Source: Escherichia phage 121Q. Taken from it: 64,000 nt of DNA. This document shows, in pieces, positions 3,358 through 17,833 of this stretch. The stretch lies in the sequence record NC_025447.1, one strand, 5' to 3'. The first letter of the stretch is position 1. Each line of letters starts with the position of its first letter. The notes beneath the pieces are model-generated. The model was not told the origin of the DNA, did not search any database, and saw only the letters and a list, made by a program, of their open reading frames with translations. Both the position numbers and the translations under genes were made by a program.

Positions 3358-3585
3358 ATGACAAATACTCTTAAGTACTACCTCAATACTCTAAATGAAC
3401 TAGAGTACGGGGAGTTTCTCTCGGATAGTTCGTGGCTAATTGAGCTAAAAAATTATAATAGTCCAGGATGCACCCTTATGATGAACAATGCAATTGATAC
3501 CCTCATTGTGAGTATTTTACACAGCAACATCTGCGGGGATAGCAATAAACAATTATCAAAAATCTTAGTACTGCTATCTATATGA
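3358..3585 (+). CDS. family-1 small protein (~60-75 aa tandem paralog)
   Basis: SD AAGGAG; first gene of array. Confidence 0.6.
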   Translation: MTNTLKYYLNTLNELEYGEFLSDSSWLIELKNYNSPGCTLMMNNAIDTLIVSILHSNICGDSNKQLSKILVLLSI

Positions 3586-3785
3586 ATATCGAACAGTACT
3601 ACATCGATGCACTACCAACAAAAGGTCTACGAGAAAGCCTACTGTATACACAAAATACTATTATACACTACAAACGTTGTCCTAAACTCCTGAACTCGTA
3701 CAGGAATAATATCATAAGAAATGCTTTACAAGGGGCAGAAAGTATGCAATACTATTATATCCTTGCCCTTTTAATCGAGTACTAA
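3582..3785 (+). CDS. family-1 small protein
   Basis: ATGA stop/start overlap; C-terminus ...LALLIEY. Confidence 0.6.
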   Translation: MNIEQYYIDALPTKGLRESLLYTQNTIIHYKRCPKLLNSYRNNIIRNALQGAESMQYYYILALLIEY

Positions 3786-7289: not shown

Positions 7290-7400
7290 TCTCCCCAGGC
7301 TAAACCCCGTAATCATAGGTAGTCATAAGTAATCATATATAAACATTTAAGTAATCATTTATAATCACTGTAGTGATCAGTAGTGATCAGTAGTGAGTAC
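7290..7400. repeat. Cluster of short direct repeats (GTAATCA x4; AGTAGTGA x3)
   Basis: cgtaatcatagg...agtaatcatatat...agtaatcattta...gtagtgatcagtagtgatcagtagtgagtact. Confidence 0.6.
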
Positions 7401-7821
7401 TAGAGTACAGGAATGTTCACGTTTAATCAAGAACGTAGCAGTACTGATATGCCACTAAGTAGGCAGAGGAAGTCTGCCGTACTTTGTAGTTTCCAAGCTC
7501 CTTTTCCATTTTGCAAATTACATCAAATGTAATCAAAAGTAATCACGCAATGATTAGTACTGAATTATTACTTTCACCTTAATTTCAATTACCCCTTTAC
7601 CCTTCGGGGTAAAATTCAATTACCCCTTGAGGCTCCAGCAAAAAGTTGGTTAGTACTCCATCCTAAATCTCGATCCTAAAAATTTTGGAGTACCTATGAA
7701 ATAAAAGTTGGATCTTCGAAAGTTGAAATTTACGTTGGGACATATAGGATTTGTGGGATATAATGAGTTTTGTAGCGATACAGATTATACGATTTCAGTA
7801 CTGAATAATGAAAGAAAGCTA

Positions 7822-7849
7822 TTGACATTATGATTCAGTACTGTATAAT
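7822..7849 (+). promoter_or_regulatory. sigma70-like promoter with no obvious downstream ORF (possible non-coding transcript)
   Basis: TTGACA, 16-nt spacer containing CAGTACTG, TATAAT; no SD plus ORF of useful length follows. Confidence 0.4.
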
Positions 7850-8033
7850 GTTCTACATAGAGAGATGAGTTGCTGCGAACAATTCATTTACTCTACCTCC
7901 TGTCGTGAGACAGTACAGAAAAGATAGTTCCTCCTGTGGTGGTACATCTTTTTGAACCTCATATGAAAATCGTAATAACAGTACTGATATTAACAGAATG
8001 GTGTCAGTACTGATTTTAATCTAAAGCATTATG

Positions 8034-8053
8034 CCACCAGCTTGTGCTGGTGG
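8034..8053. repeat. Perfect hairpin carrying Chi in both orientations
   Basis: CCACCAGC-TTGT-GCTGGTGG. Confidence 0.6.
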
Positions 8054-8209
8054 ATTCCCTCTAACAGTATTCAGTACTACATGATAGTCTTCATCCTCCT
8101 ACAGTAACAGTGAGGGCTATTGTGGCAGTACTGAATACTCCCTTTCAAAAGATAGATCTATGGTATAGTACTGACGGATTTTGGGCGTAGTAACCCTAGG
8201 TTGAATTTA

Positions 8210-8355
8210 GACGTAGAGATGTCTAGACCTCCAGATGGCTGGAAGTAAAGATGGCTATCCCTCTAGGCGGCTGGATGGCTAGATTTCTAGATGGCTGTAC
8301 TGCTAGACGTTTGGACGGCTAAACGGCTAGATGGTTACACGTCTGGATGTATAGA
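8210..8355. repeat. Iteron-like array of short degenerate repeats (approx. CTRGAYGGCT), followed by an A/T-rich tract
   Basis: agatggct x4, gacggct x2, ggctag x3, tctaga/gtctagac palindromes within ~140 bp; then aaatcaaaatttttattttatttttt. Confidence 0.55.
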
Positions 8356-8520
8356 CGGCTAAATCAAAATTTTTATTTTATTTTTTCCAATAGTTCCCCT
8401 ACCGCGTGGGGATGGTTTCCCCGCAGTATCTGGAGTTAGATTTTTCTGAATCTGGAATCATTATCCCCGTTTTCGCCTGGTATGTCAACCGTCTGGATGA
8501 ATAATTTTAAAAAATAATCT

Positions 8521-8580
8521 AGTACTGAATTTTGGGCGTAACTATGCACCCGGTGGGCTAGAGTCTTTCTCGACTTGATA
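8521..8580. repeat. ~60-bp direct repeat, copy 1 (partner 8739-8800)
   Basis: agtactgaattttgggcgtaactatgcacccggtgggctagagtctttctcg versus tactgaattttgggcgtaattccgcaccccctggggtatccgctttctcg; both contain a degenerate inverted CCCAC-GGGTGC box. Confidence 0.5.
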
Positions 8581-8738
8581 AAAATATTATAGCAGTACTG
8601 AATTATAAAAGCAATAGCCTGGATGTAAAAAGTTTTAATTAATTTGCTTGTCATCCTGGGGCGTACTATGGTACTATGATTCAGTACTGAGAAAGTGCTA
8701 TGACCTGCTAAGGTGCGGGAGTGTATCCTTTTTAAATT

Positions 8739-8800
8739 TACTGAATTTTGGGCGTAATTCCGCACCCCCTGGGGTATCCGCTTTCTCGCGTCTATGTAGT
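8739..8800. repeat. ~60-bp direct repeat, copy 2
   Basis: See 8521-8580. Confidence 0.5.
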
Positions 8801-8893
8801 AATTATACGCTTTTTTAGTACTGAGTCAATAGCTAAAAACAAAATAATTGAAAATAATTTAACGCGTTTAAACGGCCCGTAAAGCCCTGGTTA

Positions 8894-8901
8894 GCTGGTG
8901 G
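8894..8901 (+). other. Chi octamer GCTGGTGG
   Basis: Exact match, intergenic. Confidence 0.6.
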
Positions 8902-9076
8902 CGGTGCAAATGTATAGCTTAGGTGTATTAATGCGTTAGAATGCGATTGAGGACGTTTTACGGGGTATAGTACTGATTCAGTACTGAATAGTAGTACTGA
9001 AAGATTGTTCTCCCTGGATTGTTCCAGTACTCCTATATAGAAAGAAAACTATTTTAAAAGTATTTGTAGAAAGTAC

Positions 9077-9104
9077 TTGCAAAGTATTGGGAAAGGTGTA
9101 GAAT
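9077..9104 (+). promoter_or_regulatory. early-type sigma70 promoter with leader hairpin
   Basis: aAAGTACTTGCAA, 16-nt spacer, TAGAAT; hairpin ACGGGGG..CTCCCGT at ~9118-9137. Confidence 0.55.
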
Positions 9105-9160
9105 GTTTTACATCGAGACGGGGGAAACGCTCCCGTTGCACTTTAAAAGAGATTAAAACG

Positions 9161-9523
9161 ATGGCGACTCAAATCAATACTATCATGCTTAACCTGGTTT
9201 CTTTCCGTGAAGAGATGAAAGATCTTCCCGCTGAGACTGTACGGATTCACATTGCAGCTTATCGGGAATTGATTGCAATGCTGCCGCTTAAGCGTGAACA
9301 GTATGCCGCTACTGCTATGCTCGATGCAATGATCCATAAGATGATCCAGACTGATTTAACGATGGCTTATCAGTACATGGGCGAAATGTTTGCAGTGTAT
9401 AGCAAGCCAGTACCAGGAATGGAAAGTACAGAAGTATTGCACGGCTTAAACTTAAAACAAGATGCATGGGATAATATGCCTCGTTTCCTGGTATGGGCTG
9501 ACAGTGGCAAGATTTACGAATAA
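9161..9523 (+). CDS. hypothetical protein (120 aa)
   Basis: Start trimmed from 9077 to ATG 9161 (MATQINTIM), downstream of promoter and hairpin. Confidence 0.6.
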   Translation: MATQINTIMLNLVSFREEMKDLPAETVRIHIAAYRELIAMLPLKREQYAATAMLDAMIHKMIQTDLTMAYQYMGEMFAVYSKPVPGMESTEVLHGLNLKQDAWDNMPRFLVWADSGKIYE

Positions 9524-9537
9524 GTTTAATAAAGTAC

Positions 9538-9565
9538 TTGCAAACTAAGTTTAAAAGCGTATAAT
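9538..9565 (+). promoter_or_regulatory. early-type promoter with leader hairpin
   Basis: TTGCAA, 16-nt spacer, TATAAT; hairpin GTGGGGAA..TTCCCCAC 9578-9596. Confidence 0.6.
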
Positions 9566-9617
9566 GTTTTATATCAGGTGGGGAATAGTTCCCCACTATA
9601 ATAAAGAGGATTTAAAA

Positions 9618-9857
9618 ATGGCTAAATCAAAAATGTTCTTAGGACACAAAAACAAAACTCATTGGAATGTTTCCTTATGGATTAATAATGACGAATCATT
9701 ATACCGGTTGGCCCAGGACTTTATTGCCGCTAACACTAATCGTAATGATGCGGCCCGTCATATGATGCTATTTTTAGAACAGACTGGACAAGATAAAACT
9801 CCAGACGGCTTTAAGTATAGCACTACTGCGATCCGTGCGGCGATGGTTGGAATGTAA
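9618..9857 (+). CDS. hypothetical protein (79 aa)
   Basis: ATG 9618 after SD AAAGAGGA; MAKSKMF... Confidence 0.65.
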   Translation: MAKSKMFLGHKNKTHWNVSLWINNDESLYRLAQDFIAANTNRNDAARHMMLFLEQTGQDKTPDGFKYSTTAIRAAMVGM

Positions 9858-9875
9858 GAGAATAGATTAAAAGTA

Positions 9876-9903
9876 CTATTGCACGGTGATAGTACTTTAT
9901 AAT
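9876..9903 (+). promoter_or_regulatory. promoter-like element (deletion variant of the 21921 promoter)
   Basis: aaagtactattgcacggtgatagtactttataat; -35 degenerate. Confidence 0.35.
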
Positions 9904-9940
9904 AAAGTTCTTTTTGTACAACAACGATAGGGGTAACAGC

Positions 9941-10207
9941 ATGACTATTACATATTTTGCAACGCGTGAACTTGCTCGGATTGCCGCACGCCAGGACGGG
10001 GCGACGTTTAAAGATATGGGCGTACAATCTGAACGTGGTAAACGTTGGGCCGTAGTAAAGCAAAGTACAGCCCGATCAATTCAGTACTGGCGAGCGGCTT
10101 TAAAGCGTCCTGATAGTGTATCGCGTCGCGTGGTAGAAATAAAGCACGACCGCAAGGGCAATCGCGTTACCGTGTACCGTACTAAAAAGATTGCAGTACT
10201 TGAATAA
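9941..10207 (+). CDS. hypothetical protein; paralog of 21998-22393
   Basis: MTITYFATRELARIAAR...HDRKGNRVTVY shared with 21998 protein (MITKFFATREQARIVAR...HDRKGNRVTVY); start trimmed to ATG 9941. Confidence 0.65.
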   Translation: MTITYFATRELARIAARQDGATFKDMGVQSERGKRWAVVKQSTARSIQYWRAALKRPDSVSRRVVEIKHDRKGNRVTVYRTKKIAVLE

Positions 10208-10214
10208 AAAGTAC

Positions 10215-10242
10215 TTGCAAACTATGTTTAATGGCGTATAAT
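10215..10242 (+). promoter_or_regulatory. early-type promoter with leader hairpin
   Basis: TTGCAA, 16-nt spacer, TATAAT; hairpin GCGGGAA-CAC-TTCCCGC 10257-10273. Confidence 0.6.
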
Positions 10243-10294
10243 GTTTTACATCGAGAGCGGGAACACTTCCCGCCTATAACCTGGAGTAATAAAA

Positions 10295-10525
10295 ATGACT
10301 AATATGTATATGACTGAAGTTAAAACCGTAAAAGATACTACCACGAATAAAACTACTTACTTACAGCGGATCTGCGGTGTATGGCAACGTATCAGCAAAT
10401 CAAAGTACTTTAAATTAACATCATATGCCAATCGTTCGGATTCATTCAGTACTGAAATAAAAGGTAATAAAGTACACCAATACGGCACTTATTATTATTA
10501 TAGCCTGGACGCGATTGCAGTATAA
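10295..10525 (+). CDS. hypothetical protein (76 aa)
   Basis: SD CTGGAGT; ATG 10295. Confidence 0.65.
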   Translation: MTNMYMTEVKTVKDTTTNKTTYLQRICGVWQRISKSKYFKLTSYANRSDSFSTEIKGNKVHQYGTYYYYSLDAIAV

Positions 10526-10555
10526 GTAGTTTACAAATCTTTACAATTGCCAGTA

Positions 10556-10584
10556 TTGACTTATTTTGTCAGTACTGGCATAAT
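10556..10584 (+). promoter_or_regulatory. promoter (rightward) of convergent pair flanking box element
   Basis: TTGACT, 17-nt spacer containing CAGTACTGG, CATAAT. Confidence 0.5.
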
Positions 10585-10607
10585 GTATCTATTGAAACGA
10601 ACAATTT

Positions 10608-10683
10608 GGCCCACGGGGTGCGGGAGTGTATCTATAGAAAAAGTAGTTTATTACAGTTACAATTGTGCACCCGGTGGGTTAGC
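10608..10683. repeat. Inverted pair of the 'CCCACNGGGTGC' box (candidate small structured RNA)
   Basis: ggcccacggggtgcgggagtgtatctatag ... tgtgcacccggtgggttagc: ~12-bp imperfect arms around a ~45-nt loop. Confidence 0.45.
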
Positions 10684-10699
10684 TGTTGTCATGGGGTAT

Positions 10700-10728
10700 A
10701 TTATGCCAGTACTTGATAATGCTGTCAA
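10700..10728 (-). promoter_or_regulatory. promoter (leftward) of convergent pair
   Basis: Minus strand reads TTGACA, 17-nt spacer, CATAAT (plus strand attatg...tgtcaa). Confidence 0.5.
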
Positions 10729-10775
10729 TACTTTTTTTTTACTATTCAGTACTGAAAACTATTTTTAAAAAGTAC

Positions 10776-10803
10776 TTGCAAACTATGTTTAAAGGCGTAT
10801 AAT
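10776..10803 (+). promoter_or_regulatory. early-type promoter (first of tandem pair)
   Basis: TTGCAA, 16-nt spacer, TATAAT; followed by conserved ~85-nt leader also present at 20777-20862. Confidence 0.55.
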
Positions 10804-10893
10804 GTTTTACATCAGGACGGGGAATGAAATAAGTAACTCCCTGTTAAGTAGTCCAGGAGTAAGACATACGAAAACCTCCCCTGATAAAATAGT

Positions 10894-10921
10894 TTGACAA
10901 AGATTTATAAAAGCGTATAAT
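10894..10921 (+). promoter_or_regulatory. early-type promoter (second of tandem pair)
   Basis: TTGACA, 16-nt spacer, TATAAT. Confidence 0.55.
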
Positions 10922-10953
10922 ACTTACATCAACTACTGAATGAGGGTTACAAA

Positions 10954-11565
10954 ATGAAAACTATCACTACTACTACTTTCGTTATGGCTTTTTCTGAACT
11001 GAACGCAGAACAACAAACGGCGGCTATCGAACTGGTTCGGGATCGGGAACGTGCAAGTGAGGATAATTTCTTTGCTGAGTCAGTACTGGAATACTATAAA
11101 GAAACAGTACTACCAGAATACGGCATAGATGAAGCTGAATTGCAATACAGTGGTTTTTGGTCGCAAGGTGACGGTGCATCAATCAGTACTGACCACGTTG
11201 ACGCTGAGAAGTTTTTACGCAAGGTTAAGGCGTTAACGAAATATCGTTCCATCCGTCACCTGTTGAACGAAGATGATTTGGAAATGAGTGTAGAACGTTC
11301 CCAATCGCGTTATGCACACGAAAACACGGTAGGCGGTTGCGTTGATACTCGCTACACTGATTTAACTGTAAAACAGGCGGCGTTAGCTGAGGAACTGGAA
11401 AATTTACTGACTGACACGATCCGAGAATTATCTTGTAAGCTGTACCGTGATTTAGAAAATGCTTATGAAGACCAGTTTACTACTGAAAACATTGTAGGAC
11501 TGATTGAGGGTAACGAATATCAATTTAATGTTATCGATGGTGTAGTAGAATCTATCGCATATTAA
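10954..11565 (+). CDS. hypothetical acidic protein (203 aa)
   Basis: SD GAGGGT; long ORF with even codon structure; acidic composition. Confidence 0.7.
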   Translation: MKTITTTTFVMAFSELNAEQQTAAIELVRDRERASEDNFFAESVLEYYKETVLPEYGIDEAELQYSGFWSQGDGASISTDHVDAEKFLRKVKALTKYRSIRHLLNEDDLEMSVERSQSRYAHENTVGGCVDTRYTDLTVKQAALAEELENLLTDTIRELSCKLYRDLENAYEDQFTTENIVGLIEGNEYQFNVIDGVVESIAY

Positions 11566-11623
11566 TTCAGTACTGAATCACTGGCGGGGAATGGTTCCCG
11601 CCTATATCCCAGGAGTAAGAGAA

Positions 11624-11860
11624 ATGATCGAACAAATCAAAACTACAACGCCAAACGTAACGGGTACAGTATCACACTTCATTGGTGACGATTCGCGGGG
11701 CGTTCCTTATTGTGCAGTACATGTAAACAAAAATGGCGACTACTGGCTAACGGTTTACGGTTCTTATTCTTTCGGGCGTAGTGCACACCAAAAGATCCTG
11801 GATAAAGTACAACCAACGGGTAAAAATATCACCGCTGAGATGTTTTATAAAAAGCACTAA
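11624..11860 (+). CDS. hypothetical protein (78 aa)
   Basis: Start trimmed to ATG 11624 after SD CCAGGAGTAAGAG; preceded by hairpin GGCGGGGAATGGTTCCCGCC. Confidence 0.6.
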   Translation: MIEQIKTTTPNVTGTVSHFIGDDSRGVPYCAVHVNKNGDYWLTVYGSYSFGRSAHQKILDKVQPTGKNITAEMFYKKH

Positions 11861-11867
11861 AAAGTAC

Positions 11868-11895
11868 TTGCAAAGTAATTAGATTAACGTATAAT
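11868..11895 (+). promoter_or_regulatory. early-type promoter with leader hairpin
   Basis: TTGCAA, 16-nt spacer, TATAAT; hairpin 11910-11926. Confidence 0.6.
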
Positions 11896-11945
11896 ACTTT
11901 ATATCGAGAGCGGGAATAGTTCCCGCCTTTACTGAGGATTATCTA

Positions 11946-12230
11946 ATGGGTAAAGTAATTAACTATACAGTACTAAGCAAGTCATTATCTATTAGCCAGT
12001 GCACCGATGGTTTTTGGCTGTACGATGAAACGCGTGGCATGAATTTAGCTATGCAGGAGAAAACTACTGATGCGGCATATCTTAAAGCACTGGAATACTA
12101 CCAGAAGCGTTTAAAGGAAGTAGAAAACGATTATAATAACCTGAAAGCGAAAGTAGATCATTTCGTCGGTCAATTCATTGACGATGACGAGGACGGGCAC
12201 TACTGCGACCGTTGCGGATCTTACAATTGA
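11946..12230 (+). CDS. hypothetical protein (94 aa)
   Basis: SD CTGAGGAT; ATG 11946. Confidence 0.65.
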   Translation: MGKVINYTVLSKSLSISQCTDGFWLYDETRGMNLAMQEKTTDAAYLKALEYYQKRLKEVENDYNNLKAKVDHFVGQFIDDDEDGHYCDRCGSYN

Positions 12231-12247
12231 GTACTGAGGATTATCTA

Positions 12248-12451
12248 ATGAGTGATTTAATTAAACGTATCAAAGAGCTTGAAGAAAAAGAATTGCAGTT
12301 GATCGGGTTACGGAATAAAGTATTCCATGATTTAGGTGGCTTCATTAATGCCTGGGATAGTGGCGATCCTGATGCGTTACCTGCTAACCGCCAGGCGATG
12401 ATCAATGATGTGCGTGGTGTCTTTGATTATGTTTTAAAGCAATTAAATTAA
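12248..12451 (+). CDS. hypothetical protein (67 aa)
   Basis: Start trimmed to ATG 12248; duplicated SD context actgaggattatctaatg as at 11946. Confidence 0.6.
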   Translation: MSDLIKRIKELEEKELQLIGLRNKVFHDLGGFINAWDSGDPDALPANRQAMINDVRGVFDYVLKQLN

Positions 12452-12459
12452 AAAAGTAC

Positions 12460-12487
12460 TTGCAATTAGTTTTCAGTACTGTATAAT
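12460..12487 (+). promoter_or_regulatory. early-type promoter with leader hairpin
   Basis: TTGCAA, 16-nt spacer (ttagttttcagtactg), TATAAT; hairpin ~12500-12518. Confidence 0.6.
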
Positions 12488-12537
12488 AGTTTACATCAAG
12501 GGGGAAATGGTTCTCCCCACTAATAAGGAGTTTTACA

Positions 12538-12759
12538 ATGGCTAATATCACTACTCTTTCCCAGCTTGAAGCACTGGTTAAATCTATGCGGGAACATGCC
12601 GACAATATCGGCGTAGAAGATCCGGCTGTATGTTTTTGCGACGAAATAAATGATGATACGCTCGTCATTGCAGAAGTACAAGACGTTTCTAACTATTCAT
12701 CGCGTTACACTGGCGGCGTAGCAAAGAAAGGTGATTTTTGTTTATATCTTACTAAGTAA
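12538..12759 (+). CDS. hypothetical protein (73 aa)
   Basis: SD TAAGGAG; MANITTL... Confidence 0.65.
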   Translation: MANITTLSQLEALVKSMREHADNIGVEDPAVCFCDEINDDTLVIAEVQDVSNYSSRYTGGVAKKGDFCLYLTK

Positions 12760-12766
12760 TAACCAG

Positions 12767-12792
12767 GGGGATCAAACGATCCCCTTTATTTT
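12767..12792 (+). terminator. Rho-independent terminator
   Basis: GGGGATC-AAAC-GATCCCC followed by TTTATTTT. Confidence 0.6.
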
Positions 12793-12818
12793 GCAGTACT
12801 GAATCATTTAATAGACGG

Positions 12819-12850
12819 ATCTATGCACCCTGTGGGTTAGTGACTATCTC
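12819..12850 (-). repeat. 'CCCACAGGGTGCA' box element, minus orientation, downstream of minus-strand promoter
   Basis: Plus strand atctatgcaccctgtgggttagtgactatctc is the reverse complement of the box seen at 16977. Confidence 0.5.
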
Positions 12851-12864
12851 GTCTTTATGTAGGT

Positions 12865-12893
12865 ATTATGCCAGTACTGGATGCAGTTGTCAA
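12865..12893 (-). promoter_or_regulatory. minus-strand promoter driving the box element
   Basis: Minus strand TTGACA, 17-nt spacer, CATAAT; transcript would end at the 12767-12792 hairpin. Confidence 0.5.
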
Positions 12894-12927
12894 GACTTTT
12901 TTTTCAAATACTTTTATATTAAAGTAC

Positions 12928-12955
12928 TTGATAATAGTTTTTAAACGCGTATAAT
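12928..12955 (+). promoter_or_regulatory. early-type promoter
   Basis: TTGATA, 16-nt spacer, TATAAT. Confidence 0.5.
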
Positions 12956-13005
12956 GTTTTACATCTAATCGGGAATACTCCCTAGTACTAACAAAGGATA
13001 TACAA

Positions 13006-13305
13006 ATGAAAACTGCAATCATCGCCCTGGCTTTATCTGTTTCCTCTTTCGCTGTTAACGCTTCCGTTGATGTACAGAAAGAAAAATTCATTCAGTGCAC
13101 TGTTGCAATGACTAACGAGGAAACGGCTGAGATCGTTACCAAATCCCTGGAACTGGCCCCTGCAATGTTTGCTAATGGCCCGTACCATGAAGAAGATGAT
13201 CAGGGTAGCACGACCATCTATTACGATGCAAAAAGTAAACGCGGTTCTGTCACTGTAATGGATACAGAGAAAGTTACATTCACTGGCGTAATTAATTGTT
13301 TATAA
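13006..13305 (+). CDS. small secreted/periplasmic protein (99 aa)
   Basis: N-terminus MKTAIIALALSVSSFAVNA-S resembles a Sec signal peptide; SD AAAGGA. Confidence 0.6.
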   Translation: MKTAIIALALSVSSFAVNASVDVQKEKFIQCTVAMTNEETAEIVTKSLELAPAMFANGPYHEEDDQGSTTIYYDAKSKRGSVTVMDTEKVTFTGVINCL

Positions 13306-13323
13306 TATAGTACTGAATCACTA

Positions 13324-13352
13324 GCCCACTATAAGGAGTGGGCTTTTTTTAT
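13324..13352 (+). terminator. Rho-independent terminator
   Basis: AGCCCACT..AGTGGGCT followed by TTTTTTT. Confidence 0.7.
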
Positions 13353-13401
13353 TGTAGGATTGTAGTACTGGTATACTTTGAAAATAGTTTTAAAAAAGTA
13401 G

Positions 13402-13429
13402 TTGACATTACCAGGGAAAAGCGTAGAAT
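13402..13429 (+). promoter_or_regulatory. early-type promoter
   Basis: TTGACA, 16-nt spacer, TAGAAT. Confidence 0.55.
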
Positions 13430-13543
13430 GTATTACATCAAGACGGGGAACATTAAGTAGACCGCCAGTAAGTCGAATGAAAAACTGGACACGTCAAACA
13501 AACTTTGATAAACTAACTTAAACTTTAATTGAGGATTTATAAA

Positions 13544-14026
13544 ATGGCTAATGTAAAATCATTTCTGAAAGCACTGATTTCTAACGATACTGTCATTGCT
13601 GCTGAATTGCTGGCTGACCTGGATAATGATACCATGAAAGCAGTACGCAACAATTTTAACATTGCTTACAGTGAAGCGAAAGAACTACAAGCCAAAAAGG
13701 TAGCAGAACTGGAAGAACAGAAAAAAGCCCGTGAAGCAGAACTGCAAGCAACAATAGAAAGTATTCAGGCGGCGGTGTCTGGTTTAGATCTGGAAGTGGT
13801 TATTGAAATGGCACATAAAGCCCTGGCGGTTAAGTACGGTGAAGATAAGCCGGAATCTAAGCCTAAAAAATGGATTCAAGAACGTGTTACGGTTGTCCTT
13901 GATAACGGGGAAGAACATTTGATTCCTGTACGCGGTAACTGCATTGCGGTAGTACTGGATGCTATCAAAGAAAGCGGTATGACTCGCGAGGAATGGATCG
14001 AATCTCACCGCAAAATTGAAGCATAA
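13544..14026 (+). CDS. hypothetical protein (160 aa), coiled-coil-rich
   Basis: Start trimmed to ATG 13544 (MANVKSF) after SD GAGGAT. Confidence 0.65.
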   Translation: MANVKSFLKALISNDTVIAAELLADLDNDTMKAVRNNFNIAYSEAKELQAKKVAELEEQKKAREAELQATIESIQAAVSGLDLEVVIEMAHKALAVKYGEDKPESKPKKWIQERVTVVLDNGEEHLIPVRGNCIAVVLDAIKESGMTREEWIESHRKIEA

Positions 14027-14047
14027 CATTTAAAGTACTGAATCACT

Positions 14048-14074
14048 AGCCCACTTATACAGTGGGCTTTTTTG
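14048..14074 (+). terminator. Rho-independent terminator
   Basis: AGCCCACT-TATAC-AGTGGGCT followed by TTTTTTG. Confidence 0.7.
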
Positions 14075-14154
14075 TGTCTATAGTATTCCATGCCGTCAGC
14101 ACCTCATAGAATCGATTCTAACGCATTAAACTGATTATCTGATGCATCGCCCTA

Positions 14155-14162
14155 GCTGGTGG
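14155..14162 (+). other. Chi octamer GCTGGTGG
   Basis: Exact match, intergenic, next to repeated cgttagaatgcgattgag element. Confidence 0.6.
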
Positions 14163-14227
14163 AGTTAAGGCCGTTAGAATGCGATTGAGAGCGTTTAAAG
14201 TATTTTGCAAAAAGTAATAAAAAGTAC

Positions 14228-14255
14228 TTGCACGATTCAGAGATTAGCGTATAAT
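14228..14255 (+). promoter_or_regulatory. early-type promoter
   Basis: TTGCAC, 16-nt spacer, TATAAT. Confidence 0.55.
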
Positions 14256-14300
14256 GTTTTACATCAAGGCGAAACACCTTAACTAACTGAGGATATAAAG

Positions 14301-14453
14301 ATGAATACTTATGAACTGGATTGTTTCACGTTACAAGTAATGTCAGTATGCAGCAAGAAAGATTGGTCATCAAAGGAATTTAAAGCAGTTATTGCGTGTG
14401 CAAAACACGGCAAGACTATCAATGAAACGGCATCAATCATTGATAAACTTTAA
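14301..14453 (+). CDS. hypothetical small protein (50 aa; below ORF-track cutoff)
   Basis: SD CTGAGGAT then ATG 14301; MNTYELDCFTLQVMSV... Confidence 0.5.
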   Translation: MNTYELDCFTLQVMSVCSKKDWSSKEFKAVIACAKHGKTINETASIIDKL

Positions 14454-14461
14454 AAAATAGT

Positions 14462-14489
14462 TTGACAATAGTTTTAAGTACTGTATAAT
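14462..14489 (+). promoter_or_regulatory. early-type promoter
   Basis: TTGACA, 16-nt spacer (atagttttaagtactg), TATAAT. Confidence 0.6.
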
Positions 14490-14522
14490 ATTTTACATCA
14501 ACTACTGAGAAGGATTTAAAAA

Positions 14523-14750
14523 ATGGCTATCATCATCACTTACGTATCTGGCACTACTGGCACTTCTAGCACTGTTGCAGTACTGACCAACAAGAAAGGT
14601 GCGGAACTTCATTCTGCAATGAATACCTGGGCGGTGAATGAGTTCGGTCAGTGGGCTAGTGTAGAATACATTGAAACCTATCAAGTGCCGTCTATTAGCT
14701 TAACTGATTTAGGTGTAGATCGTATCCTTTGCCTGGATGAATTAAACTAA
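14523..14750 (+). CDS. hypothetical protein (75 aa)
   Basis: SD GAGAAGGA; MAIIITYVSG... Confidence 0.65.
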   Translation: MAIIITYVSGTTGTSSTVAVLTNKKGAELHSAMNTWAVNEFGQWASVEYIETYQVPSISLTDLGVDRILCLDELN

Positions 14751-14766
14751 AAAGTACTTGCAAAGT

Positions 14767-14794
14767 AAATCGGATAAAGTATAATACATTACAT
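14767..14794 (+). promoter_or_regulatory. early-type promoter with leader hairpin
   Basis: TTGCAA, 16-nt spacer, TATAAT; hairpin GGGGAGAA-ATGA-TTCTCCCC 14807-14826. Confidence 0.6.
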
Positions 14795-14835
14795 CAAGGG
14801 GAGAAATGATTCTCCCCACTAAGAGGAAACTAAAA

Positions 14836-14979
14836 ATGAAAACTTGTCAATGTGGTAAAAAATCTATCACTGGTTTGAAACGGGGCGTTGCTCTTTGTCA
14901 GTATCACTATAACGCTCAAGTATGGGGTAAAGAGTGGGCAGACCAGGTGGAAGCTGTAAAGAAAGCAAAAAGTAAGTAA
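14836..14979 (+). CDS. small Cys-containing protein (47 aa; possible zinc ribbon)
   Basis: SD AAGAGGAAA then ATG 14836; MKTCQCGKKSITGLKRGVALCQYHY; the ORF-track minus-strand ORF 14830-15039 is judged antisense noise. Confidence 0.5.
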   Translation: MKTCQCGKKSITGLKRGVALCQYHYNAQVWGKEWADQVEAVKKAKSK

Positions 14980-14998
14980 AATTATTATCACAGTACTA

Positions 14999-15027
14999 TT
15001 GACATAGTTTGATAGTACTGGCATAAT
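14999..15027 (+). promoter_or_regulatory. early-type promoter (variant 2)
   Basis: TTGACA, 17-nt spacer (tagtttgatagtactgg), CATAAT. Confidence 0.55.
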
Positions 15028-15060
15028 AGATTTTATCAAGACAACTAAGAGGAAACAATA

Positions 15061-15273
15061 ATGGCTATCATTACTAAAATCAAAGTTAACAAATCACTGG
15101 TTAAACTTGAACAAGTGAAAGCAGGTTATAAAGTATCGTGGTGCGGTATGTATCGGATGTTCACCGATATAGACAATGCAATCAAGTACTACACTGACAC
15201 CGTTGCCTCATTCGTTCGTTCTGATGTAGTACTGGCAGTACATGCACATAAAGCAGCGAAAGAAAGTAAGTAA
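15061..15273 (+). CDS. hypothetical protein (70 aa)
   Basis: SD TAAGAGGAAA; MAIITKIKVN. Confidence 0.65.
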   Translation: MAIITKIKVNKSLVKLEQVKAGYKVSWCGMYRMFTDIDNAIKYYTDTVASFVRSDVVLAVHAHKAAKESK

Positions 15274-15292
15274 AAATATTATCACAGTACTA

Positions 15293-15321
15293 TTGATATA
15301 GTTTGATAGTACTGGCATAAT
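15293..15321 (+). promoter_or_regulatory. early-type promoter (variant 2)
   Basis: TTGATA, 17-nt spacer, CATAAT. Confidence 0.5.
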
Positions 15322-15364
15322 AGATTTTATCAAGACAACACATATTAATTTAAGGAATACTAAA

Positions 15365-15688
15365 ATGGCTAAAACTATCATCAACACCGTTTCCCTGGCT
15401 GCAATCCGTGCAATCAATGTTGACGGTAAACGTTGGACTGATTCATATGGCAATACTTATCATTCTTGTCATGTAAGCGTCGAACTGGATAACGGTTTGA
15501 ATGATCTGGCGGTTGAATCATTTACTTATGGCTATGAAGATGCATATCAACAAACGGCGTTATCTCTCTTAAAGGAATCAGTAGACGGGCTTAATACTGA
15601 TGAAACCTCCCTTACTCGTTTGTGCAATGATCTTAATATCCCGTTGCATTGTACTGTACAGAATGTTAAACGCAAAAAAGATCTTTAA
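15365..15688 (+). CDS. hypothetical protein; paralog of 21575-21898
   Basis: Shared core RWTDSYGNTYHSCHVS...FTYGY...VKRKKD with the 21575 protein. Confidence 0.7.
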   Translation: MAKTIINTVSLAAIRAINVDGKRWTDSYGNTYHSCHVSVELDNGLNDLAVESFTYGYEDAYQQTALSLLKESVDGLNTDETSLTRLCNDLNIPLHCTVQNVKRKKDL

Positions 15689-15768
15689 TTAGCTTTACTT
15701 TATGCAGATACTTTTATATAGTGTCTGCATAGGGGAAAGAAATTAAATTAACTTAAGAGGATCGTATA

Positions 15769-16038
15769 ATGAAAAATATCAGTACTTTAATCGATGCAGG
15801 TACACATGTTCGTCGGTCAATGGTTGCAACCAGTACTACAAAACAAGTAGCAAGCGGTTATCTTGTATTTGTACACGAAGGAAAGCTATTGGAACGTTCA
15901 ATCAATTTTGATGTTAAAAACAATTGCCGTTTTATTATTTTTAAGCGTGAACAATATAAAATTGATTTGCCAGCAAAGCCCATAAGCGGGGCGTACAACG
16001 TGCAATCATTGTTTGAGCGTCAACCATACACCTATTAA
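15769..16038 (+). CDS. hypothetical protein (89 aa)
   Basis: SD AAGAGGAT; ATG 15769. Confidence 0.6.
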   Translation: MKNISTLIDAGTHVRRSMVATSTTKQVASGYLVFVHEGKLLERSINFDVKNNCRFIIFKREQYKIDLPAKPISGAYNVQSLFERQPYTY

Positions 16039-16089
16039 TCAAAACATCGTTAGCGGTCGATTTAGGCCGCTTATATTGGGGATTATACC

Positions 16090-16260
16090 ATGAACGTTAA
16101 TCAAGTACTGAATGAAGTTGAAAGCATCATTAAACCAATGAAACGTATTGATGCTGTTCCTACACCGGAAGAATGCCGCCTTTATGAGCGTTACAGTGTG
16201 GAACAAGCCCAGGAAATGGCCCGTATCCGTCCGGTTGCCAGTACTGATAAGGCGGCGTAA
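16090..16260 (+). CDS. hypothetical small protein (56 aa)
   Basis: ATG 16090 after GGGGATTA; stop abuts next start. Confidence 0.45.
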   Translation: MNVNQVLNEVESIIKPMKRIDAVPTPEECRLYERYSVEQAQEMARIRPVASTDKAA

Positions 16261-16261
16261 T

Positions 16262-16471
16262 ATGCTTACTGTACAGGATAAGATCGACATCTTAAAGGTT
16301 AATATGTATGTGATTGATGCAGATCCTGAAAAAGTATTTGCATACGATGATTCTAATCGTAGTCCTTTTTATTGTAGTCATGTAGTTGGATACGTGCCGT
16401 TAGGGTATGTTATCGAAAGAGTGGTTGATGAAGCATACAAACATTTTTTAGAAAATAATACTTGCAATTAG
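16262..16471 (+). CDS. hypothetical protein (69 aa)
   Basis: Start trimmed from 16148 to ATG 16262 (MLTVQDKIDIL), directly after the stop of the upstream ORF. Confidence 0.5.
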   Translation: MLTVQDKIDILKVNMYVIDADPEKVFAYDDSNRSPFYCSHVVGYVPLGYVIERVVDEAYKHFLENNTCN

Positions 16472-16489
16472 TTTTCAGTACTGTATAAT
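16462..16489 (+). promoter_or_regulatory. early-type promoter with leader hairpin
   Basis: TTGCAA, 16-nt spacer, TATAAT; hairpin GGGGGGAATGGTTCTCCCC 16502-16520. Confidence 0.6.
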
Positions 16490-16538
16490 TGTTTACATAG
16501 AGGGGGGAATGGTTCTCCCCGATACTAGGAGAATCAAA

Positions 16539-16691
16539 ATGAAACAATACAACGCTCGGTTTGATGTTACTATCGGCAACGGCAAAGGTCAATTTTCTTT
16601 CAGTACTCGTAGGAGTTATACAGAAAACTTCCTGCGTAATTGTGCACTGACCGCCGCACAAATTAAACATTACTTTCAGGCTAAAAAATGA
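16539..16691 (+). CDS. hypothetical small protein (50 aa)
   Basis: Start trimmed to ATG 16539 after SD TAGGAGAA. Confidence 0.6.
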   Translation: MKQYNARFDVTIGNGKGQFSFSTRRSYTENFLRNCALTAAQIKHYFQAKK

Positions 16692-16777
16692 AATCATTGG
16701 CTTATTACAGTTCGGCCCTGGTCGGTGCATTGATCGCGGCATTGTTAGTAACTTATCTATTCTTTATGGTGATTTAA
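16688..16777 (+). CDS. 29-aa hydrophobic peptide (single predicted TM helix)
   Basis: ATGA overlap with upstream stop; MKSLAYYSSALVGALIAALLVTYLFFMVI. Confidence 0.4.
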   Translation: MKSLAYYSSALVGALIAALLVTYLFFMVI

Positions 16778-16915
16778 ATGAATCCTAACGGTTTAATTTA
16801 CAGTACTCCTAAAACGAAAGCAGATAAAGCGAAAGCACGTAAAGCGAAAGTAAAGCAGTACATCAAGCAAGGCATGACACGCAAAGCGGCATTGCTTAAA
16901 GCTAAAAATAAATGA
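16778..16915 (+). CDS. 45-aa lysine-rich basic peptide
   Basis: TAAATG junction with upstream peptide; MNPNGLIYSTPKTKADKAKARKAKVKQYIKQG... Confidence 0.4.
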   Translation: MNPNGLIYSTPKTKADKAKARKAKVKQYIKQGMTRKAALLKAKNK

Positions 16916-16924
16916 AAAAAGTGG

Positions 16925-16953
16925 TTGACTTCGGTCAGCCATTTTGCTATTAT
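16925..16953 (+). promoter_or_regulatory. promoter with embedded inverted repeat, driving the box element
   Basis: TTGACT, 17-nt spacer (tcggtcagccattttgc), TATTAT. Confidence 0.5.
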
Positions 16954-16976
16954 ATATTCATTGAGAGATAGCTCAC

Positions 16977-17007
16977 TAGCCCACAGGGTGCAGGAGTGTA
17001 TCTATTG
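16977..17007 (+). repeat. 'CCCACAGGGTGCA...GTATCTAT' box element
   Basis: tagcccacagggtgcaggagtgtatctattg; family also at 10608, 12819(-), 18658, 20666, 23969, 25888. Confidence 0.55.
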
Positions 17008-17057
17008 TATAATGATTGAGTACTGAAAACTATTTTAAAGTATTTGATAAAAAGTAC

Positions 17058-17085
17058 TTGCAAACTATCTCAATGAGCGTATAAT
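17058..17085 (+). promoter_or_regulatory. early-type promoter with leader hairpin
   Basis: TTGCAA, 16-nt spacer, TATAAT; hairpin GGAAACGGTTTCC ~17102-17114. Confidence 0.6.
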
Positions 17086-17138
17086 GTTTTATATCGCAAG
17101 GGGAAACGGTTTCCTCTCCAAATAAAAGGAATACCAAA

Positions 17139-17477
17139 ATGATCTCTATCGCTCAATCTAACTTTGAAAACGAAATCATCGCTCAGGCACTGCGTTTAAA
17201 TGATGGTCGGGCCGAAATCAATTACGGTTTCAATAGTGGTGGATGTGAAAAATATCAGTACTTTGTAACGGCTGATGGCTGTGTCCTGGGTATCAATACA
17301 GTTATTGTAAACATTCAGAAAATTAATTTCAATGATCCAGACGATAGCCAGTTTTACATCACGGGCGTAGACGTGAACTATGAGGATGACTCACTAACTG
17401 ATGATCACACTGGCGAGAAGTTAGAAAGTGCATACGGTGAAGATGATTATCAGTCAGTACCAGAAGATTTTGAATAA
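17139..17477 (+). CDS. hypothetical acidic protein (112 aa)
   Basis: SD AAAAGGAAT; ATG 17139. Confidence 0.65.
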   Translation: MISIAQSNFENEIIAQALRLNDGRAEINYGFNSGGCEKYQYFVTADGCVLGINTVIVNIQKINFNDPDDSQFYITGVDVNYEDDSLTDDHTGEKLESAYGEDDYQSVPEDFE

Positions 17478-17491
17478 TATTAAAAAATAGT

Positions 17492-17519
17492 TTGACAATA
17501 GTTTTTAGTACTGTATAAT
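17492..17519 (+). promoter_or_regulatory. early-type promoter with leader hairpin
   Basis: TTGACA, 16-nt spacer, TATAAT; hairpin GGGGAGAATAGTTCTCCCC 17532-17550. Confidence 0.65.
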
Positions 17520-17572
17520 TAATTACATCAAGGGGAGAATAGTTCTCCCCACTAACAGAGAGAGAAAACAAA

Positions 17573-17785
17573 ATGGCTAATATCCGCACTGTACTGAAAA
17601 ATGCAAAACAAGTTTTATTTTCTGATCATGAAAATTTCAACAAGGATATCACTGGCGTTCGGAATATCAAAGATGTAAAAAATGTTATGGGTATCTATTG
17701 CAATATGAAACGTGTTGGCACGTTCGGCGATAAAGTACTATACCAGGCAGGGGATTACAATTTTACACTGACTATCATTAACTAA
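17573..17785 (+). CDS. hypothetical protein (70 aa)
   Basis: SD AGAGAGAGAAAA; MANIRTVLKN. Confidence 0.65.
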   Translation: MANIRTVLKNAKQVLFSDHENFNKDITGVRNIKDVKNVMGIYCNMKRVGTFGDKVLYQAGDYNFTLTIIN

Positions 17786-17804
17786 AAATATTATCACAGT
17801 ACTA

Positions 17805-17833
17805 TTGACAACGTTTGATAGTACTGGCATAAT
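17805..17833 (+). promoter_or_regulatory. early-type promoter (variant 2)
   Basis: TTGACA, 17-nt spacer, CATAAT. Confidence 0.55.

Follow-up and report, generated by a model that had tools for sequence, protein, structure and literature searches.

The locus at positions 10556–10728 of the window (the whole 64,000-nt stretch analysed, from Escherichia phage 121Q, NC_025447.1) was shown to be non-coding and to consist of two paralogous box-leader units in convergent orientation, each with a strong sigma-70 promoter that is followed directly by a transcribed module of ~50 nt. The real subject is the element that the original prediction had called the box, a structured RNA module with copies all over the terminal repeat. 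The best explanation overall, which was rated somewhat above even, is that of paired box-leader units with a module that, as we infer, functions as a protein-recognised 5' RNA signal. Coordinates of the locus and of the other family members are collected in Table 1.

Table 1: Features of the convergent pair, its surroundings and the other family members (window positions; strand left empty where none applies).
Feature	Position	Strand	Details
Rightward sigma-70-type promoter, P(+)	10556–10584	+	TTGACT-17-CATAAT, TG extended –10, 10/12 matches
Leftward sigma-70-type promoter, P(–)	10700–10728	–	TTGACA-17-CATAAT, TG extended –10, 11/12 matches
Plus-strand module copy of the pair	10590–10639	+	covariance-model match 27.5 bits, E 5e-5
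Minus-strand module copy of the pair	10649–10688	–	covariance-model match 28.9 bits, E 1.8e-5
Box of the plus unit	10610–10621	+	CCCACGGGGTGC; pattern search
Hairpin-forming inverted repeat inside P(+)	10548–10580		TGCCAGTATTGAC / GTCAGTACTGGCA, 13-nt arms, 92% complementary
Predicted intrinsic terminator of the rightward RNA	10705–10740	+	hairpin AGUACUUGAU...GUCAAUACU + U9; in MFE and centroid structures
Mechanical 73-aa ORF, not a gene	10547–10768	+	in-frame stops in 8/8 orthologues
Direct terminal repeat (DTR), approximate	7458–27640		alignment to vB_Ec-M-J (annotated DTR 1–21525); holds every family member
Single leftward unit, close to the left DTR end	8528–8577	–	36.1 bits
Second convergent pair of the window	8682–8794		plus unit 8682–8734 (25.1 bits) facing minus unit 8744–8794 (26.5 bits)
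Leftward unit, ~95 nt	12807–12857	–	ends at bidirectional terminator 12765–12786
Family member	16959–17009	+	promoter embedded in terminator-like hairpin 16918–16945
Family member	18644–18693	+	covariance model
Family member	20653–20698	+	terminator–promoter composite 20612–20647; then Chi site at 20700
Family member, top-scoring copy	23951–24001	+	66.1 bits; terminator–promoter composite 23910–23945
Family member	25875–25920	+	terminator–promoter composite 25834–25869; then Chi site at 25947

Every feature that had been described for the locus was found at its place. The two facing promoters were recovered with the matches given in Table 1, and their predicted starts (A at ~10591 on the plus strand; ~10692–10693 on the minus strand) would face each other at a distance of ~102 bp. 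P(+) is of the same promoter class as the other box-leader units; its –35 and –10 hexamers and the rightward box are unchanged across nine Asteriusvirus orthologues, P(–) and the leftward box are intact in eight of the nine, and P(–) is degenerate in CMSTMSU. The stretch as such matches 49 records of the Asteriusvirus group with 80–99% identity (best places 91.8–95.8%) and belongs to an Asteriusvirus-like jumbo coliphage; the site of the pair falls within annotated terminal repeats. The promoter regions 10552–10587 and 10697–10732 form an inverted repeat of 36 nt with 75% complementarity. The T9 run, likewise as described, lies at 10732–10740; it is the A-tract immediately upstream of the leftward –35 and varies between T5 and T9 among the orthologues.

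Read leftward, the predicted terminator at 10705–10740 is the –35 region of P(–) together with its upstream A-tract. By the folding models, the rightward RNA would have a U-tailed intrinsic terminator, as have terminator-ended (Hfq-type) small RNAs, and the leftward hairpin would be without a U tract. The inverted repeat at 10548–10580 folds in minus-strand RNA, beyond the leftward RNA, and because no U tract follows, it would be at most a weak terminator for the latter. The most likely products, as far as the sequence allows prediction, are two complementary early non-coding RNAs of ~100–150 nt; a complementary overlap of ~100 nt, provided that both promoters fire, is a fair prediction.

The box and its inverted copy, for which arms of ~12 bp and a loop of ~45 nt had been given, were found as CCCACGGGGTGC and GCACCCGGTGGG (10667–10678), complementary at 11 of 12 positions and 45 nt apart. 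As judged by sequence comparison, this inverted repeat is a by-product of two paralogous units lying in opposite orientation, each arm having a closer relative elsewhere: the nearest paralogue is 16959+ for the plus arm (10590+) and 18644+ for the minus arm (10649–), and the identity is 22/34 between the arms and 28/34 to other units. That the pair arose by a recent inverted duplication was rejected for this low mutual identity and because each arm is closer to another unit. On the same comparison the repeat is not a selected hairpin: each arm is the conserved core of a different paralogue within a family of 11 copies, and the central two positions of the box change independently in the two arms when orthologues are compared. 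The box pattern (up to two mismatches) occurs 11 times in the window vs 0.38 expected, a count reached by none of 100 shuffles; complements of the box within the window were found only in family units of the opposite strand. In Muenster, direct repeats of TTTACAAATCTTTACAA lie on the flanks of the pair.

The 73-aa ORF had been regarded as non-coding, and this view was upheld by the in-frame stops (Table 1) and by indels of 4, 5 and 7 nt which, along with the length of the T run, distinguish the orthologues. A Shine–Dalgarno sequence is absent, as predicted; the start, a TTG, lies 9 nt upstream of the –35 hexamer and not inside it as had been supposed. The region is unannotated in UE-S1 and PBECO4; in WPEC3 and SD-2_S15, CDSs are annotated across the pair. 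No conserved ORF was found on either strand under or beside the overlap of the pair. A hydrophobic 38-aa ORF (10686–10802), considered as a small toxic peptide, was rejected because it spans the length-variable T run, and a 76-aa ORF upstream of the pair, considered as a conserved partner protein, was found not to be homologous to the Muenster gene at the same position. No conservation between genera was seen for the small proteins on the flanks; a Pfam scan of six nearby small proteins gave nothing informative (sole match DUF7249).

In cis-antisense pairs (ColE1 RNA I/RNA II; 3'-overlapping type I toxin–antitoxin systems) facing promoters give complementary short transcripts. The locus had been read as such a layout, and here the facing promoters are present, as predicted promoters with predicted transcripts; like the known systems, the pair would yield overlapping complementary RNAs, one with a terminator drawn from the promoter region of its partner. 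This part of the claim is plausible. Its extension to a self-contained controller, in which the two short RNAs would control each other or a local gene through complementarity, is improbable. The conserved convergent promoters, with ~100 bp between them and a terminator on one flank, do agree with it, and convergent pairs recur 13 times, so that the arrangement itself looks selected. However, unlike in ColE1 or the type I systems, no primer, conserved toxin ORF or other target lies in or beside the overlap, the 73-aa ORF being broken and the 38-aa ORF crossing the T run; both partners carry the same 5' module, which is also present in many unpaired copies. About three quarters of the family units are unpaired, which argues for a role of the module without a partner in cis, and the complementarity of the boxes follows from family conservation, their central positions not being co-adjusted between the arms.

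The module, to which the preferred reading assigns the recognition by a protein, has three parts: an A-rich 5' leader, which in about two thirds of the copies forms a small hairpin with a purine-rich loop (hairpin 1); a nearly invariant box mini-hairpin RCCC-(3–4 nt)-GGGU (typically RCCC-Ann-GGGU), followed by GC; and a conserved tail RRARR-U-N4-CUAU. The plus copy of the pair has the leader AUUG-AAACGAA-CAAU (10591–10605), the box G-CCC-ACG-GGG-U (10609–10619), GC and then GGGAGUGUAUCUAU; the minus copy has the leader CAUGACAACAGCUAA without the first hairpin, the box CCCACCGGGTGC at 10678–10667 and then ACAAUUGUAACUGU. The first loops are purine-rich (GAGAAA, GCGAAA, AGAUAA). Among orthologues of the pair hairpin 1 is swapped, gained or lost; a 10-nt core is retained across genera amid diverging flanks.

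Pairing statistics: hairpin 1 – 4/4 pairs covary with 3–5 standard pair types each, 91.8% of cells paired; box hairpin – 99.7% paired, four C–G to U–A double changes, outer pair A–U in 52 sequences and G–U in 40; these counts take in non-independent orthologous and paralogous copies in an alignment (A4) fitted to the model, and the box stem, being nearly invariant, shows little covariation of its own. In the control with the 3' partners slid, 7–49% of the whole two-hairpin structure was paired. About 56 of the pairs counted are G–U wobbles; because these would be A–C mismatches on the opposite strand, the structure is strand-specific. RNAalifold applied to the raw MAFFT alignment gave the box hairpin only, hairpin 1 being misaligned by indels; it was recovered with a register-matched seed and a covariance model (model R1). 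A third hairpin in the tail (columns 59–63 with 68–72) was rejected at 56.8% of cells paired, no better than the slid controls, and a pseudoknot that would pair the AGAUA loop of hairpin 1 with a downstream UAUCU was rejected by inspection, as it fails for the loops GAGAAC and AGAACAA. The whole window gave no Rfam 15 family at gathering thresholds and no tRNA or tmRNA; at E up to 10 nothing significant was found in 10500–10960, and no likeness to boxA/boxB, put or ops. Mimicry of a host sequence was considered as well, but the 53-nt module consensus had no match in 5,426 E. coli genomes, in a search that is insensitive under ~20 nt.

The covariance model found 11 copies in the window, every one within 8528–25920 and within the DTR. 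In 270 kb of terminal-repeat sequence, which represents no fewer than five Rak2-like lineages and five host genera and includes phages of E. coli, Klebsiella and Yersinia and the fENko-Kae01 type, it found 99. No copy was found in 872 kb of unrelated viral loci, which had been drawn from viral contigs by chance matches to the loose pattern TTGAC N43–56 CCCANNGGGTGC; among the matches listed for this pattern most are due to chance, and a stricter 19-base pattern matched in Rak2-like genomes only among the viral contigs. The restriction to the DTR is that observed in the window (64 kb), at three ends of 30 kb each and in scans with exact patterns. Across 38 units, which come from four DTRs, the promoters have 9–12 of 12 matches and the box lies 21–29 nt past the –10 (in the unit at 8557– of the window, ~28 nt). 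Convergent pairs account for 26 of the 99 units; the 13 pairs, at several loci and in different genera, have a 5'-to-5' span of 99–135 nt. The plus unit 8682–8734 of the second pair in the window has a variant box, CCTGCTAAGGTGC, and a weak promoter. In two phages the module leads directly into a Shine–Dalgarno sequence and ATG. Search of the literature on Rak2-like phages, PeSLs and jumbo-phage transcriptomes gave no description of the box element, and no transcriptome of any Rak2-like phage was found in it.

PeSLs (promoter-early stem-loops) are composite terminator/promoter cassettes of T4-like phages (Arbiol 2010, PMC2839356; Comeau 2014, PMC4122927). PeSLs and box-leader units alike combine a sigma-70 early promoter close to consensus with a stem-loop or terminator, occur in repeated copies, and cluster in a hyperplastic region of a T4-related myovirus that holds small ORFans; the nt-1 type of PeSL (A3–4 G3-loop-C3 T3–4) looks like AAAGGGATTGACTCCGGTCAGTCCCTTT of the box-leader units, and both promoters of the pair contain embedded hairpins, the combination of promoter and stem-loop that marks a PeSL. 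It may be asked whether the family acts at the DNA level, the RNA being incidental: as PeSL-like cassettes that insulate transcription units and offer homology for gene shuffling, with the pair as a strong bidirectional transcription barrier between adjacent genes. In four of the five stand-alone rightward units of the window, at the head of gene blocks, a terminator-like hairpin overlaps the –35, which is exactly the PeSL layout (PMC4122927); leftward units adjoin bidirectional terminators, the first hairpin is exchanged or lost between orthologues, and the pair of Muenster is flanked by the direct repeats mentioned above. This explanation is nevertheless unlikely, since it accounts neither for covarying transcribed hairpins that tolerate G–U on one strand only nor for the 10-nt core kept across genera, and the unit positions are syntenic between the window and vB_Ec-M-J, and partly with Muenster, rather than polymorphic. 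PeSLs as described are without a conserved transcribed module, whereas box-leader units are defined by a two-hairpin RNA of ~50 nt past the start; unlike PeSLs, they are often gene-less, lie on both strands, form convergent pairs and are found in the terminal repeat only.

The pair lies ~3.1 kb inside the DTR of ~20 kb; terminal repeats of this length in this phage group were confirmed by restriction digests (PMC13070987). The repeat is hyperplastic, has 13 perfect 12/12 promoters in 20 kb, and its units lie near iteron-like repeats and one-orientation Chi sites. Because it is packed with host-type promoters and small genes, it looks like an early, host-takeover region. T5 (pre-early region) and SPO1 carry host-takeover modules in long terminal repeats, and the box-leader DTR is like these repeats in its dense packing with very strong host-type promoters and small early genes; we know of no repeated structured leader RNA family described in either. 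Strong promoters followed by AT-rich sequence, confined to the terminal repeat near the iteron-like repeats and Chi sites, would also suit transcription-activated DNA sites, i.e., R-loop origins (as T4 oriF/oriG) or recombination hot spots at which the short RNA primes or opens the DNA. We regard this as very improbable: a repeat with ten or more origins would be unusual, the units lie in both orientations, and known R-loop origins feature neither covarying RNA hairpins nor a sequence-specific box.

Lambda nut (boxA/boxB), HK022 put and ops/RfaH are promoter-proximal antitermination signals. Like these, the module is short and structured, is transcribed right after an early promoter, has small hairpins with purine-rich loops and is repeated at the heads of early units; unlike them, it has neither sequence nor Rfam similarity to the known elements, is much smaller than put, and many copies have nothing downstream to antiterminate. 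An elongation control of this type, in which the module would load a factor on its polymerase or modify the latter and so alter termination, Rho sensitivity or pausing, with pairs and terminator-backed units as switches that release late antisense read-through, is quite unlikely. The module does begin within a few nt of the predicted start, was never found away from a promoter, has the two-hairpin layout with a purine-rich first loop, and heads multi-gene blocks and two mRNAs; ops contains AGCGUG, and the 3' half of the box, AGGGUG, resembles it, which is a lead only. Against this stand the lack of a match to any Rfam family, the 3.7-kb block after 16959+, in which the scan found no strong intrinsic terminator and which so has no evident need for antitermination, and the half of the units that face a terminator or a partner with no genes beyond. 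The promoter-proximal position at the head of an operon holds for the rightward single units; it does not for the pair or the terminator-backed leftward units.

For the paired box-leader units with a protein-recognised module, the following course is proposed. Host RNA polymerase would fire from P(+) and P(–) immediately after infection. The rightward RNA, started at ~10591, would cross its own module and then the reverse complement of that of the partner, and would stop at ~10740 after roughly 150 nt, at the hairpin and U9 that are the –35 region and A-tract of the partner read backwards; the leftward RNA, started at ~10692, would mirror this course, but would meet only the hairpin that has no U tract. 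Head-on collision within ~100 bp would also be inevitable for polymerases that start at the two promoters, which would favour short products. The module would act as a structured 5' RNA signal, recognised by the polymerase that transcribes it, by an elongation factor, or by an RNA-binding protein of host or phage, and would have two uses: it would head rightward gene blocks as their leader, and it would make up the body of stand-alone RNAs that are short. Each RNA of the pair would in addition carry an "anti-module" able to pair with the partner and, over ~28 of 34 positions, with other leaders (10649– vs 18644+; 10590+ vs 16959+).

Three observations touch on the mode of action. Full-length complementary RNAs would mask each other's modules, which fits poorly with binding by a protein; the stand-alone units with a strong terminator at their end speak against a purely cis-acting elongation signal, and rightward units without a terminator against a purely trans-acting small RNA.

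A bolder version, tentative and rather doubtful as a whole, regards the box module as a structured phage RNA of a new class, made in the first minutes of infection from 20–25 promoters per genome (10–13 per terminal repeat), which might reprogram the host elongation complex in the manner of put, nut or ops, without similarity to them, or titrate a host RNA-binding protein; the convergent pairs might then be antisense "off switches" or generators of dsRNA for the family.

Rak2-like jumbo phages (PBECO4, RaK2, GAP32, CBB and others) are under development for therapy, and the annotation of their 20-kb terminal repeats lists nothing but small hypothetical genes, dozens of them. The terminal repeat is shown here to carry a conserved multi-copy structured RNA element with near-consensus host promoters, and the spurious small-ORF annotations at the pair sites of WPEC3 and SD-2_S15 are corrected. 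A 12-nt hairpin, 99 aligned examples and a covariance model provide a handle for studies of immediate-early control, RNA–protein interaction or antisense action. Should the module prove to bind polymerase or a factor of the host, this would represent a new mechanism of phage takeover; if not, the PeSL concept would be extended from promoter and terminator to promoter, terminator and leader RNA.

The 901 bases around the site were matched by 49 phage records in a similarity search, the best matches being the Asteriusvirus jumbo coliphages PBECO4, G17, UE-S1, JNE01 and others (91.8–95.8% identity). The 425 bp between the 76-aa gene (10295–10525) and the 203-aa gene (10954–11565) are unannotated in UE-S1 and PBECO4; in WPEC3 and SD-2_S15 small CDSs were placed across them by annotation pipelines calling every ORF. 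The two promoters, the box (a conserved mini-hairpin core) with its inverted copy, the T run and the ORF of the original prediction are all present, and the arrangement of facing promoters and inverted box is real and significant. Together the promoter regions form a 36-nt imperfect inverted repeat with an internal hairpin in each; the rightward hexamers and box do not vary in nine Asteriusvirus orthologues, and eight of the nine also keep the leftward promoter and box intact, the leftward arm being degenerate only in CMSTMSU (unverified record).

Features of the convergent locus and box-leader units of the window
Feature	Position	Strand	Basis or remark
Rightward promoter TTGACT-17-CATAAT	10556–10584	+	10/12, TG extended −10
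Leftward promoter TTGACA-17-CATAAT	10728–10700	−	11/12, TG
Box CCCACGGGGTGC	10610–10621	+	pattern scan
Inverted box GCACCCGGTGGG	10667–10678	−	pattern scan
T9 run	10732–10740	+	sequence
TTG-initiated 73-aa ORF	10547–10768	+	ORF track
Unit	8528–8577	−	covariance model
Unit, second pair	8682–8734	+	covariance model
Unit, second pair	8744–8794	−	covariance model
Unit, studied pair	10590–10639	+	covariance model
Unit, studied pair	10649–10688	−	covariance model
Unit	12807–12857	−	covariance model
Unit	16959–17009	+	covariance model
Unit	18644–18693	+	covariance model
Unit	20653–20698	+	covariance model
Unit	23951–24001	+	covariance model
Unit	25875–25920	+	covariance model

The ORF was excluded as a gene: in 8/8 orthologues an in-frame stop is reached by codon 21 from the homologous TTG (codon 6 in ph0011), indels of 4, 5 and 7 nt occur across it and the T run varies from 5 to 9, which supports the non-coding function first proposed. 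TTTACAAATCTTTACAA (two TTTACAA, one helical turn apart) was found at 10530–10546, ~10 bp upstream of the rightward −35; it is kept in Klebsiella phage Muenster (locus L005: 1037, 1410, 2305, 2539, 10325), where two direct copies flank the orthologous pair, and may be an upstream promoter or regulator site or the remnant of a cassette insertion. Directly after the pair stands an early promoter of standard type (10776–10803) with a structured leader and a Shine–Dalgarno-like GGAG, followed by ACATACG in place of the expected ATG; the 203-aa gene is preceded by a perfect consensus promoter (10894–10921), and 10776–10953 resembles a decayed gene or a further non-coding early RNA.

With up to 2 mismatches tolerated, 11 matches to the box pattern were counted in the window where chance predicts 0.38. 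A strong promoter precedes ten of them at a constant spacing; the match at 27074 (2 mismatches) has none and was rejected as a family member. In 38 units of four DTRs (direct terminal repeats, ~20 kb), 21–29 nt separate the box from the preceding −10, and the promoters score 9–12 of 12; in window unit 8557− of this set, read at the corrected −10, the spacing is also ~28 nt. The units have in common TTGAC, a 17-bp spacer, TATTAT/CATAAT/TATAAT and a "CAT" start region, and their transcribed part consists of an A-rich leader, then CUA(A/G)-CCC-Ann-GGG-UGC, then RRARR-U-(GUA/CCG)-UCUAU. A strict 19-base pattern, run against 2.9 million viral contigs, matched only genomes of 345–378 kb and one 109-kb fragment, each time in one cluster of ≤20 kb (in one genome, in both terminal copies). 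A covariance model built from 17 register-matched units found 99 copies in 270 kb of DTR loci of Rak2-like phages (the jumbo group including Asteriusvirus); unrelated viral contigs totalling 872 kb, each with a chance TTGAC...CCCAnnGGGTGC, gave none. All 11 units of the window fall between 8528 and 25920 and thus inside its DTR, which was placed at ~7458–27640, the site ~3.1 kb from its left end, by alignment of the vB_Ec-M-J genome end. By a more sensitive search the annotated DTRs of vB_Ec-M-J (21,525 bp; orthologous element at 3448–3692), Muenster and fENko-Kae01 contain the site; ~20-kb DTRs in the genus are confirmed by restriction digestion (PMC13070987).

Other features were noted in this region. 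Thirteen perfect 12/12 sigma-70 consensus promoters (TTGACA-16/17-TATAAT) stand in the ~20 kb at 7458–27400, almost one for each small gene, a very dense arrangement of the host-takeover type. Ten Chi sites lie at 8034–25947, all within the presumed terminal repeat, with none in the other 44 kb (less than one expected, by rough estimate); the + strand carries nine of them as GCTGGTGG (8046, 8894, 14155, 18321, 19782, 20700, 23078, 24486, 25947), the − strand a single one (8034). Those at 20700 and 25947 are 20–45 nt downstream of a unit's box, and in other phages Chi lies inside promoter spacers of units; the orientation bias would shield a right-hand DNA end from RecBCD. In the whole window 61 copies of the palindrome CAGTACTG were counted (0.78 expected; densest at 0–28 kb), and ~265 of AGTACT. 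Copies stand within promoter spacers (CAGTACTGGCATAAT) and immediately before the −35 of the common early promoters (AAAAAGTACTTGCAA), and most box modules have one 15–25 nt downstream; it could be a binding or modification site of some factor. The left end of the repeat is gene-free with iteron-like arrays (8210–8340, 7313–7400, 7523–7545), one of (A/T)GATGGCT(G/A) at 8–16 nt spacing, into which a leftward 11/12 promoter (8488–8460) is directed, another of GTAATCA/GTAGTGATCA repeats on both sides of the inferred boundary (~7458); they are candidate packaging, end-recognition or origin sites. The left genome end predicted by PhageTerm for Muenster has a box CCCACTGGGTGC 16 nt away (L005 17–29, −) that lacks a good promoter; no counterpart was seen at the window's inferred boundary.

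The module is a conserved, strand-specific, two-hairpin element immediately downstream of near-consensus host-type promoters. In the seed, 97.8% of the cells of two helices are paired, against 9–43% in slid controls. Pairing was counted over 93 distinct sequences, which as paralogues and orthologues are non-independent, in an alignment (A4) fitted to the model itself: hairpin 1 (about two thirds of units) covaries in 4/4 pairs with 3–5 standard pair types each, its stems including GAG/CUC, GAC/GUC, CGC/GCG, GGC/GCC, GCA/UGC, CCA/UGG and GCCG/CGGC, with purine-rich loops (GAGAAA, GCGAAA, AGAUAA, AGAACAA); the box hairpin (loop 3 or 4 nt) is 99.7% paired with four C-G to U-A double changes, its outer pair being A-U in 52 and G-U in 40 sequences. 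Read from the other strand, about 56 G-U pairs would turn into A-C mismatches; selection therefore acts on one strand, most simply on the transcript. A third hairpin was examined and rejected; no match to Rfam, tRNA or tmRNA was obtained.

The module is also multi-copy and confined to the DTR, and its copies often form convergent pairs. Thirteen such pairs comprise 26/99 units over all loci (5'-to-5' span 99–135 nt), in the window 10590+/10649− and 8682+/8744−; since different genera have them, and at several distinct loci, the arrangement is recurrent and no accident of this genome. A recent inverted duplication was rejected: the arms are 22/34 identical over the conserved core, and each is 28/34 identical to another unit (10590+ to 16959+, 10649− to 18644+). 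Among orthologues the two central box positions vary independently between the arms; hairpin 1 is replaced in the window's rightward arm, and in WPEC3 and EJP2 the leftward arm has gained one. What was read as an inverted repeat (12-bp arms, 45-nt loop) is therefore simply a facing pair of family cores. At the centre of each pair of Klebsiella-type and other Rak2-like phages (L006 ~1030–1060, ~7300–7330; L005 ~1375–1395, 2410–2445; L101, L015, L134) a strong Fur-box-like palindrome was seen (e.g., GCGAATGATAATCATTCGC, GAGAATGATAATCATTTAC), matching the Fur-box consensus GATAATGATAATCATTATC at 15–16/19 positions by manual alignment; it could be a Fur roadblock, a Fur titration site or a shared central hairpin. 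The Asteriusvirus pairs of the window are without it.

The predicted rightward RNA (~10591 to ~10740, ~150 nt) folds into a long imperfect hairpin of module against anti-module, then a second hairpin with U9 (z = −3.3), this terminator coinciding, on the other strand, with the −35 region of the leftward promoter and the A-tract upstream of it; the predicted leftward RNA (start ~10692) mirrors the fold (z = −6.1), its terminal hairpin having no U tract. The overlap would be ~102 bp, within which head-on collision of polymerases is unavoidable if both promoters are active. The original reading is right in part, the locus being non-coding and probably giving overlapping RNAs, but it did not recognise the locus as a member of an RNA-leader family spread across the lineage; a stand-alone cis-antisense pair has the expected layout but no target under the overlap, and is improbable.

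Four of five stand-alone rightward units (16959, 20653, 23951, 25875) have the −35 inside a terminator-like hairpin AAAGGGATTGACTCCGGTCAGTCCCTTT and head blocks of several genes, each with promoters inside the block as well; over the 3.7 kb beyond 16945 no strong terminator was found by scan. A Shine–Dalgarno sequence and ATG follow the module without a break in two other phages, where it can thus serve as the 5' leader of an mRNA, and leftward single units stop after ~95 nt at GC-rich bidirectional terminators shared with the converging gene. The module is accordingly used both as leader and as body of short gene-less RNAs. The nearest described system is PeSL, the composite terminator/promoter cassette of T4-like phages (PMC2839356, PMC4122927); its promoter and stem-loop are the same kind of object, whereas the units, unlike PeSL as described, have a transcribed two-hairpin module, gene-less and convergent copies and DTR confinement, and PeSL-like cassettes for DNA-level punctuation or recombination are an unlikely reading. 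An elongation signal of the nut/put/ops type, to which the module is alike in position and general shape only, is quite unlikely, and service of the units as R-loop origins is very improbable. No paper describing the element was found in a literature search.

We favour, with moderate confidence, a 5' RNA signal to which some factor binds, whether a polymerase, an elongation factor or an RNA-binding protein; confidence is only moderate since no partner was found and the unit contexts point different ways. Host polymerase would make the module RNA as soon as phage DNA enters, and the near-invariant box stem, free loop and conserved tail suggest that it is recognised by a protein rather than through a base-paired seed. 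Units in convergent pairs would in addition have the potential to act as antisense RNAs, on each other and on the whole family.
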